From a virus, in the IMG/VR virus record IMGVR_UViG_3300045741_000327: a DNA stretch of 26,757 bases; one strand, written 5' to 3'. The notes beneath the pieces were generated by a model. That model was not told where the DNA came from, made no database searches, and saw only the letters and a program-made list of their open reading frames with translations. Below, piece by piece: positions 1,771 to 12,595 of the stretch. Both the position numbers and the translations under genes were made by a program. The stretch's first letter is position 1; each line of letters starts with the position of its first letter.

Positions 1771-1955
1771 TGGCTACCCTGTAGCGAACCTACAGGGTAA
1801 GCGGGGTGCCGATTCCCCGCCGCGCTCATCACCTGGGAGTGGCTGAGAATGCTGTTCCGGGAGACTTGTAGTCGACCAAGATTTCCTGGGCAGTGATGAC
1901 ACCAGCACCGGGTTCGTAACCCGGATAACGCAGGGGTAGTGTCCTGCCTCCCTTT
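1771..1955 (+). ncRNA. tRNA-like structured region (degenerate tRNA or tRNA-like ncRNA), not a canonical cloverleaf
   Basis: T-arm-like hairpins GCGGGG-TGCCGATTC-CCCGC and CCGGG-TTCGTAA-CCCGG. 8-bp hairpin CCCTGTAG/CTACAGGG. Possible closing helix GCTACCCTG(1775)/CAGGGGTAG(1931). No acceptor/CCA. No ORF. Confidence 0.35.
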
Positions 1956-2133: not shown

Positions 2134-2463
2134 ATGGAAACACAACAGAGCAACGAGGCGCAACAAACTGAGGTGAACCTACGGCACTTCCCGAAGTACA
2201 AGCTGACCGCTGCTTTCACGATTCACGGAAAGCAGGCTCAGATTGCCTTCGCTGCCGCAAGCCCAGTGGACAACTGGTCGAGAAGGCTCGGAAGGACGAT
2301 CGCCCTCAACCGGCTGAAGAGCGACAAGCCAGACGTGAAGCACCGCATCGTCACGGACTTCGACATCCCTGCGCCGAAGTATGAGAAGGACACCCAGGAG
2401 GCCTGGGATGCCTATCTTCTCAACTTGGCTCGTCGAGACATCCTTCCACTTCCTGAAGTGTAG
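2134..2463 (+). CDS. hypothetical protein (109 aa)
   Basis: ORF track. GAGGAG RBS 6 nt upstream of the ATG. Confidence 0.6.
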   Translation: METQQSNEAQQTEVNLRHFPKYKLTAAFTIHGKQAQIAFAAASPVDNWSRRLGRTIALNRLKSDKPDVKHRIVTDFDIPAPKYEKDTQEAWDAYLLNLARRDILPLPEV

Positions 2464-2472
2464 AGGTCATTC

Positions 2473-2865
2473 ATGGCGGACTTGAACTACATCGTCGACC
2501 AGCTCTCCGAGCTCACACTTCCAGAAGCCGGCCAGTTGGCGGAGATGGTAGCCGAGAGGTGGGGAGTCAACATCTTCCTCACCCAGAAGTCGGCACCTCT
2601 GACTGTCAATCCAGTTGCGCTGGAAATCCCGGCCGTCCAAAAGACGGAGTTCGACCTCGTGTTGCTTGGGTGCGGCCCCAAGAAGATCGAGGTCATCAAG
2701 GAAGTTCGTAGTATCACTGGTCTTGGACTGAAGGAGGCCAAGGACTTCGTGGAGTCTGCTGGAGCAGGTTCTCCCCGCACCATCAAAGAATCTTTGAATG
2801 AGGGTGAGGCAAAGGCCTTCTTGAAGAGACTCCTGGACGCCGGCGCAACGGCAGAACTACAATAG
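2473..2865 (+). CDS. rplL: ribosomal protein bL12 (L7/L12) homolog
   Basis: C-terminal domain ...[41 protein letters not shown]... closely matches the bL12 CTD consensus (E. coli: [42 protein letters not shown]). N-terminal dimerisation helix plus flexible linker present. Confidence 0.85.
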   Translation: [130 protein letters not shown]

Positions 2866-2873
2866 AACGCAGG

Positions 2874-2946
2874 GCCCGAGTAGCTCAGACGGCAGAGCGC
2901 CTGCTTTGTAAGCAGGATGTCGCAGGTTCGATTCCTGTCTCGGGCT
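2874..2946 (+). tRNA. tRNA-Thr(TGT), CCA encoded (to 2949)
   Basis: Acceptor GCCCGAG/CTCGGGC perfect. D arm GCTC-AGACGGCA-GAGC. Anticodon stem CCTGC/GCAGG with loop TTTGTAA. T arm GCAGG-TTCGATT-CCTGT. Confidence 0.85.
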
Positions 2947-3068
2947 CCAAATGTGCTGACTGCGGCTTTGGTGAATCCTAGTTGCCCTTTTGGCGTGGCG
3001 GCAAAGAAGCAAACGTGCTGGGGCTAGAGTAGAGTTGTATGGACTACCAAGTTTGCGGTCAGTTTTGT

Positions 3069-3142
3069 GGGGTGTTAGTTCAGTCGGCTAGAACGCCAGC
3101 CTGTCACGCTGGAGGCCACGGGTTCGAGTCCCGTACACCCCG
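3069..3142 (+). tRNA. tRNA-Asp(GTC), CCA encoded (to 3145)
   Basis: Acceptor GGGGTGT/ACACCCC perfect. D arm GTTC-AGTCGGCTA-GAAC. Anticodon stem CCAGC/GCTGG with loop CTGTCAC. T arm ACGGG-TTCGAGT-CCCGT. Confidence 0.88.
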
Positions 3143-3161
3143 CCATTTTCTAAGGTGATAC

Positions 3162-3395
3162 ATGCCAAGACAAGTCATCAAGATCGATGAAATGGACGAG
3201 GACTCTCGTCACGATACGTTCATCACCTTGCGCATGACAATTCAAGAAGCTCTTCGCCGAGGGCTCTTGATTTGTAAATGTGGGCATCGTGATAACAACC
3301 ATTTCACGTTCGAGAAAGGACCTTGTGCTCACTGTGATGAGTGCAAGGAATTAACACTAGTTCCAGTCAATGCCATTTCTTTTGTGGGCGAGTAG
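3162..3395 (+). CDS. hypothetical Cys/His-rich small protein (77 aa). Stop codon lies inside the 5' end of tRNA-Val
   Basis: ORF track. C-x-C...H...C-x-H-C-x2-C pattern. Confidence 0.45.
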   Translation: MPRQVIKIDEMDEDSRHDTFITLRMTIQEALRRGLLICKCGHRDNNHFTFEKGPCAHCDECKELTLVPVNAISFVGE

Positions 3396-3457
3396 CTCAG
3401 CGGTAGAGCGCCTGCCTTACACGCAGGATGTCGCAGGTTCGAAACCTGTCTCGCCCA
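3386..3457 (+). tRNA. tRNA-Val(TAC), CCA encoded (to 3460). Clear paralog of tRNA-Thr(TGT) at 2874
   Basis: Acceptor GGGCGAG/CTCGCCC perfect. D arm GCTC-AGCGGTA-GAGC. Anticodon loop CTTACAC. T arm GCAGG-TTCGAAA-CCTGT. Backbone is near-identical to tRNA-Thr outside the anticodon and acceptor. Confidence 0.85.
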
Positions 3458-3493
3458 CCATCAACTCCGAAGTAATACCAAAGGGGAATTGCA

Positions 3494-5518
3494 ATGGACT
3501 TCCGTGTCTTCAAGACAGCGGTCGCAAAGCAGTTCGATCGGATGCAGAAGCACCAGCTCTTCAGGGTAGCTGTAGACAAGGATCTACTCTGGGAGACGTA
3601 CTTGAAGAGCTTCCCGGCAGGCACGAACCCAGTCTTCCGCAAGCGCACCGAGCACGACTGTGGCTGCTGCAAGCAGTTCATCCGTGCGATCGGCAACACC
3701 GTCGCGCTCATCAACGGAGAGGTGGAGAGCATCTGGGACGTACAGATCCCGGAGGAGCAGGCTTTCCAGACTGTTGCCAACGCTCTATCGGCGATGGTGA
3801 AGTCGAAGCCCATCTGCGACCAGTTCCTGCACTATGAGAACACGGCCGGAACAGACAAGAGCTGGGAGAAGATGGTCGAGCGGGTCCAGACCTGGAATCA
3901 CTTCTTCGTGAACATCCCCAAGGGATACGTCATGAAGAAGGCCGACATCCCAACGGCTCTGAGCGGTCCCCGTTCGACTCGTGATGTGCTGCTACGCAGC
4001 TTGACGGAGATCACGGACGACGCAGTCAACACGGTCCTCGAGCTGATCGCGCAGAACTCTCTGTACCGTGGAGAAGAGCACAAGTTCGCCGTCTCGGACT
4101 TCTACAAGCTGAAGCAGAAGTTCAACAAGTTCAAGACGGACAAGGACAGGGAGATCTTCACCTGGAGCAATCTGAAGGAGACGACCGGATCTGTAGCCAA
4201 GATCCGCAACACCTCCATCGGCACACTCTTGGTTGCCCTGTCTGAGGGCAAGGAGCTGGAGGATGCTGTGAAGTCGTTCGAGGCGATGGTGGCCCCGACG
4301 AACTACAAGCGTCCAACTGCTCTCATCACCAAGGCGATGATCGAGAACGCGAAGTCCAATCTACAGGAGCTTGGTCTGACGTCTGCCTTGGAGCGGAGGT
4401 TCGCAACCATCAATGACATCACGGTCAACAACATCCTGTTCGCCGATCGTTCGGCACGCAAGATCATGACTGGAGATGTCTTCGACGAGCTGGCAGGCTC
4501 GGTCAAGACGACGGTGAAGAACCTCGACAAGGTCGAAGAGGTGCCCATCGAGAAGTTCATCAACGATGTATTGCCGAAGATCGACTCCATGGAAGTGATG
4601 ATGGAGAACGATCACATTGGCAATCTCGTGAGCCTGATTGCTCCGGTAGATCCGTCGGCAGGTCGGCTGTTCAAGTGGGATAACGGCTTCAGCTGGTCCT
4701 ACAACGGCGGCATGGCGGATTCCATCAAGGAGAGGGTCAAGCGGGCCGGTGGAAACGTGACCGGGGAGTTCTGCTGTCGTCTGGCATGGTTCAACTTCGA
4801 CGACCTGGACTTCCACATGGTGGAGCCAGCCAACTACGAGATCATGTTCTCGAACAGGGCACACACGTCTCCGTGTGGTGGCCGTCTGGACGTGGACATG
4901 AACGCTGGAGGTGGTCAAACGAGGGAGCCAGTAGAGAACATCTTCTACTCCTCGATGAAGTCCATGAAGGAGGGTGTGTACACGCTGAACGTGCACAACT
5001 TCTGCAAGCGTGAATCGACGAATGTCGGCTTCGAGGTCGAGGTCGACATCAAGGGAGACGTGTACCACTTCGTTCACGAGAAGGCGGTTCCAGACAGGCA
5101 GACGATCACGGTCGCCAAGTTCAAGTATTCAAGGGCGGGCGGGGTCGAGATCTTGGAGTCTCTGCCAAACTCCAAGTCAGTACGCACGGTCTGGGGAGTC
5201 CCCACCAACACGTTCCAGAAGGTGAACGTGATGATGATGTCTCCGAACTTCTGGGACGCCAAGGCAGTCGGCAACAAGCACTACTTCTTCATGCTGGATG
5301 GCTGCATGAGTGACGCTCCAGCACGCGGGTTCTTGAACGAGTTCCTGAAGGAGGAGCTCAATGTTCACCGCAAGGTGTTCGAAGTAGTGGGATCGAAGAT
5401 GATGGTCGAGCCGTCGGACAAGCAGCTCAGCGGCCTCGGCTTCTCATCGACGCAGAGAAACTCCCTGGTCTGTCGAGTGAAGGGCAAGTTCACCCGTATC
5501 ATCAAGGTCATGTTCTGA
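3494..5518 (+). CDS. large protein of unknown function (674 aa) embedded in the tRNA array
   Basis: ORF track. AAGGGGAA RBS. High GC3 coding signature. HDCGCC Cys cluster near the N-terminus. No motif I can assign (no P-loop, no KxDG ligase motif, no MIDAS). Confidence 0.8.
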   Translation: MDFRVFKTAVAKQFDRMQKHQLFRVAVDKDLLWETYLKSFPAGTNPVFRKRTEHDCGCCKQFIRAIGNTVALINGEVESIWDVQIPEEQAFQTVANALSAMVKSKPICDQFLHYENTAGTDKSWEKMVERVQTWNHFFVNIPKGYVMKKADIPTALSGPRSTRDVLLRSLTEITDDAVNTVLELIAQNSLYRGEEHKFAVSDFYKLKQKFNKFKTDKDREIFTWSNLKETTGSVAKIRNTSIGTLLVALSEGKELEDAVKSFEAMVAPTNYKRPTALITKAMIENAKSNLQELGLTSALERRFATINDITVNNILFADRSARKIMTGDVFDELAGSVKTTVKNLDKVEEVPIEKFINDVLPKIDSMEVMMENDHIGNLVSLIAPVDPSAGRLFKWDNGFSWSYNGGMADSIKERVKRAGGNVTGEFCCRLAWFNFDDLDFHMVEPANYEIMFSNRAHTSPCGGRLDVDMNAGGGQTREPVENIFYSSMKSMKEGVYTLNVHNFCKRESTNVGFEVEVDIKGDVYHFVHEKAVPDRQTITVAKFKYSRAGGVEILESLPNSKSVRTVWGVPTNTFQKVNVMMMSPNFWDAKAVGNKHYFFMLDGCMSDAPARGFLNEFLKEELNVHRKVFEVVGSKMMVEPSDKQLSGLGFSSTQRNSLVCRVKGKFTRIIKVMF

Positions 5519-8038: not shown

Positions 8039-8305
8039 ATGACCCTCATTACTGATGCCATGCTGGAGATTGAGCACGGCGTCAGGCAACTTCGCTCTGA
8101 ACTTCAAAGAGCGGAGGAGCTTCTGGTGCGCGCTCAAATGATTCTGCGTCAGAGCGACTTGCACAAAGCTGCGCAGTTGGTAGAAGTGATTCAAGGCTAT
8201 TTGACGAGACATGGTAAGCCCACAACCACACAAGAAGGAGTGACAAGTGAGCGGCGTTCCATTGCAGACGCTGGAGAACATGATCCTACTGGGAATGGCG
8301 TTTGA
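8039..8305 (+). CDS. hypothetical helical protein (88 aa)
   Basis: Internal Met of ORF 7967..8305, directly preceded by AAGGAGGATTGAG. Confidence 0.5.
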   Translation: MTLITDAMLEIEHGVRQLRSELQRAEELLVRAQMILRQSDLHKAAQLVEVIQGYLTRHGKPTTTQEGVTSERRSIADAGEHDPTGNGV

Positions 8306-8576
8306 TGACATCGCCAAGAATCTCGGAATGACCCCAGAAGAACTCGCCAAGCAAATCAAGGACGCCAAGGACGCGGCTGCTGTGACGATCAAGCAGCCTT
8401 GGGGGCAGCCTCTCGTCAAGAACCCCACAAAGACGATTTCAAAGCCCGACCCGGACGCCAAGACTCATCCCTACAAGTGCGCCGCTTGCGGAAAGAGGTT
8501 CATTACCTCCAATGACCGCAATCATTGCCTCGAGCTGCACAAAGCTGATGCCAAGCCAAACCGAACTGAAGCTTGA
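8247..8576 (+). CDS. hypothetical protein (109 aa). Possible HTH-like segment (NLGMTPEELAKQI) and C-terminal Cys/His pair
   Basis: ORF track. GTG start after AAGGAG. Overlaps the previous gene. Confidence 0.4.
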   Translation: MSGVPLQTLENMILLGMAFDDIAKNLGMTPEELAKQIKDAKDAAAVTIKQPWGQPLVKNPTKTISKPDPDAKTHPYKCAACGKRFITSNDRNHCLELHKADAKPNRTEA

Positions 8577-9359: not shown

Positions 9360-9557
9360 GTTTCTTCCAAGATCTGTGTGGTGGTCTCTTTCACAGACTG
9401 AAAGAAACGCTACAGAAGTGAGGAAGACACCATCTGGGAGATATCACGTCACCATTTTCTACTGGTACTGTGAGCCGTCCGACACTTGGGTGATGCGAGA
9501 TGCACACAAGGGCGTTCTCGTACCATTCGGATACATTCTACCGGATTAGGAGAAACA

Positions 9558-9758
9558 ATGAACCCGGCACTAATCTTCATCGGCTGCATCATAGTGCTGG
9601 TGCTTGCTGGTGGCCTGGGTGTCAAAACCTGGCGTAAATGGGATGAGCAGAAATCCAGGAAGCTAGTCTCCAACCTCAAAGCCATGAGTGCACGCCGGCG
9701 TGCGCAAGAACCAACAGACGTATGGGAAGCCTGGAACTCAGAGAAGAGCGATGGGTAG
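9558..9758 (+). CDS. small membrane protein (66 aa)
   Basis: Internal Met of ORF 9486. AGGAGAAACA RBS. N-terminal TM helix ALIFIGCIIVLVLAGGLGV. Confidence 0.5.
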   Translation: MNPALIFIGCIIVLVLAGGLGVKTWRKWDEQKSRKLVSNLKAMSARRRAQEPTDVWEAWNSEKSDG

Positions 9759-12323: not shown

Positions 12324-12595
12324 TGGAAAAGATGATCGAGGCATTTGTTCGACAAGTGAAGGCAGTGGACCCTGAACCAGTGGTCCACAAGGACAAGCCA
12401 GCGATTTACCCAACACGCGAGGAAGTAGTCAAGAACAGGAAGTTCCAGATCACCCTCGAGCTGCACCACGACGACATGATCAAGAAGTGGAACATGCCAG
12501 GAGTGCCGACATCCAACCTGTACCTCATCTTCACTGAAGTCCCGGCATGGGCAAAGGTTGGAACGGTCGTGAAGTGGAAGATGATCGAAGAGTAG
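12296..12595 (+). CDS. hypothetical protein (99 aa; alternative start 12323 with TGATG overlap)
   Basis: ORF track. Confidence 0.5.
   Translation: METKELGALMEKMIEAFVRQVKAVDPEPVVHKDKPAIYPTREEVVKNRKFQITLELHHDDMIKKWNMPGVPTSNLYLIFTEVPAWAKVGTVVKWKMIEE

Follow-up and report, generated by a model that had tools for sequence, protein, structure and literature searches.

We describe an element in IMG/VR record IMGVR_UViG_3300045741_000327, a metagenomic contig of a large phage whose entire 26.8 kb (26,757 nucleotides, nt) is referred to here as the window. The first 7 kb of the window form a transfer RNA (tRNA) array, in which 13 tRNAs – all on the + strand, and all with an encoded CCA – are interleaved with small open reading frames (ORFs). 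The element, at positions 1771-1955, is flanked by a coding sequence at 1519-1770 (stop codon TAG, 1768-1770) and by tRNA-Arg(TCT) at 1956-2032. An earlier reading of the same DNA (the original prediction) placed it between these two genes, which the ORF list and the tRNA calls bear out, and described it as free of ORFs, which also holds: there is no plausible ORF in 1771-1955, where all three frames score negative for codon usage. It was further taken to be one tRNA-like element, possibly closed by a helix between its ends. We reset these boundaries and find two tandem four-way junctions, unit A (~1751-1834) and unit B (1833-1955). Unit B is a paralogue of the phage's threonine tRNAs, with the anticodon CGU and with all four helices and a canonical anticodon loop kept, and it is most likely a tRNA relic.

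A threonine tRNA paralogue at 1833-1955

Unit B folds without constraint into a cloverleaf with tRNA-like linkers. This cloverleaf is the minimum free energy (MFE) structure of 1833-1955, 1745-1955 and 1745-2035, with pair probabilities of 0.75-1.0, and the claim that no cloverleaf with an acceptor stem could be drawn here is therefore wrong. Its 4-bp D stem, 5-bp anticodon stem and 5-bp T stem are set off by linkers of 2/1/5/0 nt, within the 2, 1, 4-5 and 0 nt expected of a tRNA. The features of unit B are as follows:

1833-1955, + strand: unit B, a non-canonical cloverleaf of tRNA-Thr(CGU) type, found by MFE folding, by a cloverleaf descriptor and by the models R2 and R3 (below)
1833-1839, + strand: 5' strand of the acceptor stem, CUGGGAG, of which positions 3-7 pair with 1948-1952 (5 of 7 pairs)
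1842-1906, + strand: D arm, with the stem GCUG (1842-1845)/CAGC (1903-1906) and a 57-nt D loop (1846-1902)
1849-1897, + strand: hairpin inserted in the D loop, 49 nt, imperfect, with 23 pairs (4 of them G.U) in the MFE structure
1908-1924, + strand: anticodon arm CCGGG-UUCGUAA-CCCGG, with U33, the anticodon CGU (Thr) at 1915-1917 and A37, from the R1 and R2 alignments
1930-1947, + strand: T arm, with the stem GCAGG/CCUGC and the 8-nt loop GGUAGUGU
1948-1955, + strand: 3' strand of the acceptor stem, CUCCCUU, and discriminator U1955, with no CCA; base 1956 is +1 of tRNA-Arg

Many tRNA positions are occupied as expected. U8 is base 1840; G10, C11, U12, A14, G15, A23, G24 and C25 are common to seven real tRNAs; A26 precedes the anticodon arm; and the variable loop reads AUAAC. 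The T stem is identical to that of the phage's own tRNA-Thr(UGU), and the variable region, T stem, flanks and start of the 3' acceptor strand match the tRNA-Thr(TGT) of the window (GGAT..CGCAGG ... CCTG.CTC), but the T loop does not. The arm at 1908-1924 (CCGGG-TTCGTAA-CCCGG) had been proposed as the second of two T-arm mimics; both hairpins exist, but this one is a canonical anticodon arm and has no A58, a base shared by all 52 real tRNAs compared from the phage group. The inserted hairpin at 1849-1897 is strand-specific, at -20.6 kcal/mol on the + strand and -10.6 on the - strand, and with it removed the remainder of unit B aligns in register with tRNAs.

The departures from a tRNA lie elsewhere in the molecule. 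The D loop has no G18G19, and the T loop has none of T54, T55, C56 and A58, all invariant in the same 52 tRNAs. The acceptor stem is mismatched at 1:72 (C.U) and 2:71 (U.U), the two pairs that in Escherichia coli are identity pairs for threonyl-tRNA synthetase. The absence of a CCA, correctly given in the original prediction, sets unit B apart from all 13 true tRNAs of the window.

Ancestry was examined with a structural descriptor and with three models: R1, a phage-specific tRNA model; R2, a covariance model of the whole segment; and R3, a covariance model of unit B minus its hairpin. The descriptor requires the linker lengths of a tRNA, stems of 5 bp in the anticodon and T arms, a D stem of 4 bp closing a loop of at most 60 nt, an acceptor with no fewer than 5 of its 7 pairs, U8, and an anticodon loop of the form Y-U-NNN-R. 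Over ~297 kb (the window and fetched loci, both strands) it finds only the annotated tRNAs, unit B and one overlap artefact formed between two real tRNAs. It gives no match in a 200-kb tRNA-free control – where dropping U8 and the loop rule yields ~6 and a much looser form 33 – and it matches 1 of 20000 dinucleotide shuffles of the segment. The descriptor was composed after the site had already been seen, and an independent test was therefore sought in R3. Searched against 313 kb on both strands, R3 gave 12 non-self matches at E < 1, and all 12 are genuine tRNAs aligned end to end, with no false positive. The highest are the tRNA-Thr(TGT) of the window (37.2 bits, E = 1.9e-7), that of a relative (35.2 bits) and a bacterial tRNA-Thr(CGT) (30.1 bits).

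The best match of R2 outside the window is likewise a genuine tRNA-Thr(TGT), in the related contig L006 (21.3 bits, E = 0.0011 over 148 kb). This alignment places GUGGCUGAG (1839-1847) on the universal GUAGCUCAG found where the D arm begins, sets CAGC-A-CCGGGUUCGUAACCCGG against the last part of the D stem, A26 and the anticodon arm, identifies GCAGG...CCUGC as the T stem, and leaves ~55 nt as an insertion in the D loop. A sequence-only tRNA hidden Markov model (HMM) places positions 23-53 of its profile on positions 23-53 of hairpin-deleted unit B, which ranks second of 2001 sequences including 2000 shuffles. Finally, an exact search of 596 Gb of reference genomes for the 21-mer 1904-1924 recovered it just once, in a genuine tRNA-Thr(CGT) of Methylobacterium sp. 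E-045, where it occupies the same tRNA positions. We consider tRNA-Thr ancestry of unit B to be established.

Standard tRNA finders miss unit B because of the hairpin in its D loop and its rewritten T loop. ARAGORN made no call in the segment at default settings, with introns, in its transfer-messenger RNA (tmRNA) search, in mitochondrial mode or at thresholds down to 85%, and none on hairpin-deleted unit B down to 85% of threshold. The Rfam scan that had been recommended for this site gave no tRNA, tmRNA, Y_RNA or YrlA match in the segment; neither the gathering threshold nor E <= 10 brought up any family there, the tRNA family RF00005 included. R1 scores 12.1 bits at most in the segment, which is noise level, and a Smith-Waterman comparison of the whole element with tRNAs is not significant (P = 0.27). 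In a MAFFT alignment of threonine tRNAs, the 8-nt T loop of unit B shifts its 3' part.

Unit A and the fold of the segment

The proposed closing helix between the ends of the segment (1773-1780 with 1933-1940) has an ensemble probability of about zero, and forcing it costs +7.5 kcal/mol; it competes with a 10-bp hairpin for the same 5' strand. The unconstrained MFE structure of 1745-2035 consists of a cloverleaf-like unit A, then the cloverleaf of unit B, then the true cloverleaf of tRNA-Arg. The features on either side of unit B are:

1519-1770, + strand: upstream coding sequence ORF83, 83 amino acids (aa), an orphan; unit A takes in its stop codon and its last ~20 nt
1751-1834, + strand: unit A, a compact four-way junction in the unconstrained MFE structures of 1745-1955 and 1752-1832, -42.7 kcal/mol
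1956-2111, + strand: the genuine tRNA-Arg(TCT) (1956-2032) and tRNA-Lys(TTT) (2036-2111), immediately downstream, both with an encoded CCA

Unit A spans the stop codon of the upstream ORF. It has an acceptor-like 6-bp helix (GGCGCG 1758-1763/CGCGCU 1821-1826) and a D-like hairpin, AGCC-UAGU-GGCU (1764-1775), whose loop is the ORF83 stop codon. These are followed by a 9-10 bp hairpin (1775/6-1798/9, loop CGAAC) and by a T-like hairpin, GCGGGG-UGCCGAUU-CCCCGC (1801-1820), one step from a canonical T arm. Two of these hairpins had been recognized before: the 8-bp hairpin CCCTGTAG/CTACAGGG is present and extends to 10 bp (1775-1784/1790-1799), and GCGGGG-TGCCGATT-CCCCGC at 1801-1820 is the first of the supposed T-arm mimics. 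At its 3' end unit A has A1828 followed by UCA (1829-1831), where a tRNA has N-CCA, and it ends one base before the start of unit B, which fits a tandem pair of tRNA relics. It scores only 6.0 bits with R1, and it matches neither the structural descriptor nor the tRNA HMM. ARAGORN at 80% of threshold reports 1752-1828 as 'tRNA-Phe', alongside 34 spurious calls in the window. Unit A may possibly be a second, more decayed tRNA, with weak evidence that is at noise level in every test.

The fold of the whole segment is more stable than that of shuffled sequences (z = -2.9 on the + strand and -2.8 on the - strand), and spacers in the tRNA arrays of a related phage are equally or more structured (z of -3 to -4.4). 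Four-way junctions are common in local folds of the window, with dozens on both strands, and a bare four-way junction was dropped as an argument for a tRNA because such folds are common in this sequence. The structured spacers of the phage group (z of -3 to -4.4) lie at 8224-8321, 8397-8489, 9497-9589, 12447-12568 and 14064-14212 of L006 and at 2950-3068 of the window. They are often closed by a long-range stem, with a U-run at the end just before the next tRNA, and none of them matches a tRNA model or an Rfam family.

Several other readings of the local sequence were discarded. The zero frame of ORF83 contains a classic slippery heptamer, A AAA AAG (1746-1752), which precedes the base of the very stable unit A by 5 nt; a -1 shift there would swap only the last five residues of ORF83 for ten others, and the heptamer is therefore probably fortuitous. 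A tmRNA is rejected by the ARAGORN tmRNA search, including at relaxed threshold, and by Rfam. A kink-turn or C/D-box reading of CUGA...GUGAUGA fails because the required C stem is unpaired (as judged by eye), and a CRISPR-repeat mimic does not fit in stem orientation with the type I-E repeat.

The array and its relatives

ORF83 has coding-like codon usage in frame 0 only, and among 5.8 billion proteins no homologue besides itself was found. Most small ORFs of the array have a tRNA directly 3' of them; ORF83 and the ORF at 463-660 have tRNA-like hairpins instead. In the second case, the sequence directly after the stop codon (661-693) consists of a canonical T arm, GAGAG-TTCGATT-CTCTC, and a 3' acceptor-like tail. 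Its identity with the 3' terminus of tRNA-Leu(CAA) (180-211) is 66%, it has GGGGTAGT in common with 1933-1940, and it has the appearance of a duplicated 3' piece of a tRNA lying beyond an inserted ORF cassette; tRNA debris therefore does accumulate in this array. A truncated tRNA-like sequence of 62 nt also occurs in L006 (21480-21541), inside a called ORF, scoring 41.8 bits with R1 and 27.8 bits with the Rfam tRNA model (gathering threshold 29), and ARAGORN makes no call there.

The array contains another non-coding block, of 255 nt, between tRNA-Ala and tRNA-Ile (1094-1348), with no ORF signal and no Rfam match. It folds strongly on the + strand only (-111 kcal/mol, z of about -2.3 to -2.8, against +0.4 on the reverse strand), and it is missing from the closest relative, in which only 5 nt separate the two tRNAs; it has no similarity to anything in INPHARED, and no homology to 1771-1955. 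A ribosomal protein L7/L12 homologue with both Pfam domains is encoded inside the array (2473-2865). The nearest relative has no such gene, and the upstream ORF there directly precedes tRNA-Thr. Further along the window, 3494-5518 encodes a DUF8224 (phrog_1735) protein that is widely conserved in phages; its best cultured relatives, at 59% identity, are in Caulobacter phiCbK-like phages, with no synteny to the present locus. A 905-aa protein (16105-18822) has Major Vault Protein (MVP) shoulder and Vault_3 repeat domains and a weak match to Band_7/SPFH, and falls in no PHROG family.

The segment was found identical in one Logan read-set assembly. The nearest relative, represented by two contigs of one sample, has ~80% aa identity in the DUF8224 protein and carries neither ORF83 nor the element at this site, and its tRNA-Arg(TCT) and tRNA-Lys(TTT) sit elsewhere. 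There, tRNA-Cys directly precedes a 301-aa ORF (2103-3008 of contig L010) whose C-terminus is homologous to the 109-aa ORF of the window (2134-2463). The latter corresponds to the C-terminal third of the longer protein, and its N-terminal ~170 residues are replaced in the window by ORF83, the segment, tRNA-Arg and tRNA-Lys. The idea that the segment is the pseudogenized N-terminal domain of this longer homologue was rejected, as tblastn gave no signal. The array is thus mosaic with respect to its ~80%-identity relative: ORFs, tRNAs, the L7/L12 gene and non-coding blocks come and go.

The DUF8224 relatives that were fetched have tRNA arrays only where they are at least 76% identical, and none of them contains the element by blastn, nhmmer or covariance model. 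A fused query of the small neighbouring ORFs led to one relative contig, L010, which lacks it. In INPHARED, blastn with the segment returned only tRNA or chance matches, and in IMG/VR pattern scans and protein-based scans found no homologue. Two scans of JGI metagenomes for the conserved loops with free stems, in a collection from which the present contig itself seems to be absent, gave no match in one case and 12 in the other, none of which folds. The more distant DUF8224 phages carry genes for RNA repair enzymes (RtcB or an Rnl-type RNA ligase) near the DUF8224 gene and have no tRNAs there; these RNA repair or gene-poor loci are 2420-4899 and 8702-9925 of L012, 3145-4158 of L005 and 1422-2465 of L013, and L012 also has a ~2.5-kb stretch almost without called genes.

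Interpretation and comparison with known systems

Unit B is a damaged extra copy of a threonine tRNA, with a hairpin in one loop and the other loop rewritten, and it is therefore most likely a tRNA relic. We regard the segment as the remains of one or more tRNA genes lying in register in the array, with unit B a non-decoding relic and not a new kind of RNA, and put the probability of this reading at about 60%. Decoding calls for G18G19, the T-loop invariants, the top two acceptor pairs and CCA, all of which unit B has lost, and it presumably does not decode. The segment would be transcribed together with the array. RNase P cleavage at +1 of tRNA-Arg, between 1955 and 1956, is expected to set its 3' end, so that it would at most serve the ORF83 message as a structured 3' trailer or as punctuation, and not act as an adaptor in translation. 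The original prediction listed a decayed tRNA among its candidates, and for the 3' two-thirds of the segment this was essentially right, as shown by the R3 model and the 21-mer match, although the structural reading behind it was wrong; its observation is thus partly confirmed, and its interpretation partly supported.

Several observations weigh against simple decay. The damage is not spread as neutral decay predicts: the D, anticodon and T stems have 14 pairs between them, every one Watson-Crick, the anticodon loop is fully canonical, and nearly every change is confined to the D and T loops, which make up the tRNA elbow. Four of the pairs in the inserted hairpin are G.U, and its stability on the transcribed strand exceeds that on the other by 10 kcal/mol; such a G.U-rich, strand-specific hairpin hints at selection on the RNA. 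The remnant of the D loop, ACAC (1899-1902), is complementary to GUGU (1939-1942) in the T loop, a match made by eye and not significant alone. The 3' end of unit B is exactly in register for RNase P and for CCA addition, and the tRNA ancestry of unit A is not established.

These features raise the alternative that unit B is a functional tRNA-shaped non-coding RNA derived from tRNA-Thr, its elbow deliberately remodelled, that is released by RNase P or RNase Z-type cuts. It could act as a processing signal like the t-elements of plant mitochondria, as a stable scaffold on which the 23-bp hairpin is displayed, or as a decoy that draws off host nucleases targeting tRNAs. The intact stems with changes only in the D and T loops, the strand-specific and G.U-rich hairpin, the 3' end abutting +1 of tRNA-Arg, and the position of tRNA-like hairpins after ORF83 and the ORF at 463-660, unlike most ORFs of the array, all agree with such a role; so does the precedent of t-elements, non-canonical cloverleaves that are substrates of RNase P and RNase Z and may lie inside reading frames (PMC1920247). 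However, no collection searched contains a homologue, the segment is missing from the nearest relative, and bacterial RNase P would find neither the T loop nor the CCA that it uses. A few indel-type events in a young pseudogene could give the same pattern, and related arrays contain many structured spacers that are at least as stable. We judge a functional RNA, the main rival reading, to be unlikely, if still worth keeping in view. A more specific form of it, which we consider slightly less likely again, is that unit B is a remodelled tRNA that keeps the Thr(CGU) helices and anticodon loop, has exchanged the elbow for the 23-bp D-loop hairpin and a GUGU T loop pairing with ACAC, and is cut by RNase P to give a stable small RNA. 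If such an RNA were made and stable, it would be a natural case of a tRNA body reused as a phage scaffold or decoy and would bear on the role of phage tRNA arrays in counter-defence, which from a single sequence is speculation.

The remaining explanations have little in their favour. A working tRNA-Thr(CGU), with CCA supplied by a host enzyme and with the D-loop hairpin either taken out of the transcript as an intervening sequence or tolerated in it, is very improbable. It would explain the canonical anticodon loop, with G35 and U36, and the discriminator U in register with the next tRNA; the tRNA-Thr(CGT) of L006 likewise has a discriminator U and no encoded CCA, and relatives encode RNA ligases (Rnl, RtcB) beside these arrays. 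But the spliced form would still lack the elbow invariants (G18G19, T54, T55, C56, A58) and the acceptor identity pairs, 1:72 and 2:71 being mismatched; deleting the hairpin brings no ARAGORN call even at 85% of threshold, no RNA ligase was seen among the window ORFs scanned, and we know of no D-loop tRNA intron of this kind in bacteria or phages. Chance G+C-rich hairpins in a spacer, a 3' untranslated region or a weak terminator, with no tRNA ancestry, would account for fold z-scores that are alike on both strands and like those of other spacers, for the abundance of four-way junctions in local folds of this DNA, for the noise-level behaviour of unit A in every tRNA test and for a final hairpin followed by CUCCCUUU. 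For unit B this is excluded by R3, the descriptor controls and the unique 21-mer match, and a promoter and terminator scan placed no + strand terminator in the segment; for the segment as a whole we think it highly improbable. The least credible candidate is a YrlA or Y-RNA-like partner of a Ro protein, or a vault-RNA-like partner of the MVP homologue, both of which the original prediction had raised. The hairpin at 1801-1820 does come within one step of a canonical T arm (TGCCGATT against TTCGATT), and an MVP shoulder/Vault_3 protein is indeed encoded at 16105-18822, but nothing ties the segment to this gene, 14 kb away, and the Rfam YrlA, Y_RNA and Vault models are silent in the segment (1740-1975 for YrlA) even at E <= 10. 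The YrlA analogy fails every defining feature that could be tested – Rfam model, Ro gene, motif and terminal stem. There is no TROVE domain by Pfam in the 38 + strand ORFs scanned in the window, which include some of its small ORFs, and the contig is part of a genome; the closing stem has a probability of about zero; and the only CGAA of the segment reads AGCGAACC, so that the GNCGAAN0-1G motif is absent. A sub-threshold YrlA match at 1977-2087 (29.5 bits; gathering threshold 69) runs from the 3' half of tRNA-Arg into the 5' half of tRNA-Lys and is a tandem-tRNA artefact, of the kind that the YrlA authors discarded (PMC4201824).

The tRNA relic that we favour can be set beside several known systems. 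YrlA RNAs (RF02553) resemble the segment in being tRNA-derived, in having tRNA-like arms and in their presence in some phages (PMC4201824). They are, however, permuted, with ends at the anticodon-stem position forming the Ro-binding stem; they keep canonical T and D loops, contain the GNCGAAN0-1G motif and lie within ~4 kb of a Ro60 (TROVE) gene, on its strand (PMC4201824). The permutation, the T/D loop pair, the motif and the proximity to a Ro gene are all absent here.

Plant mitochondrial t-elements are closer, and are the nearest functional analogy should the segment have a function. Like units A and B, they are non-canonical cloverleaves at or over the ends of reading frames in polycistronic transcripts, and some begin inside a reading frame, as unit A does (PMC1920247). 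They were found through a conserved GGTTCRANYCC T arm, and their cleavage by RNase P and RNase Z has been shown experimentally (PMC1920247). In contrast, this hallmark T arm is absent from unit B and only approximate in unit A (GGGGTGCCGATTCCCC), and the present case is a phage, not an organelle, known from sequence alone.

Compared with a canonical tRNA-Thr(CGU), unit B shares the 2/1/5/0-nt linkers, U8, G10-C25, A14, G15, A26, U33, the anticodon CGU, A37, C48, G52, G53, C61 and C62. It differs in a D loop of 57 nt, where the canonical loop has 7-11 nt with G18G19, in an 8-nt T loop, in the mismatched 1:72 and 2:71 pairs and in the lack of CCA. The annotation of the locus is corrected accordingly: a gap that resembled a mysterious structured RNA is a tRNA-Thr(CGU) paralogue, and gaps in other phage tRNA arrays may conceal more such relics.

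The closest match is to tRNA pseudogenes of phage arrays, which like unit B lie in register and on the same strand, with homology to an isoacceptor family (here Thr) still detectable, and which have lost the T- and D-loop invariants and the CCA and fall below the threshold of every tRNA finder. The usual pseudogene shows scattered decay, whereas in unit B the helices are intact, the anticodon loop is perfect and the defects lie in the two elbow loops, together with a structured insertion of 49 nt. A degenerate tRNA gene is an ordinary object; what is unusual here is its state, which combines intact helices with a D loop that bears a hairpin and a T loop that has been rewritten. Within our searches, the object is unique to this contig.

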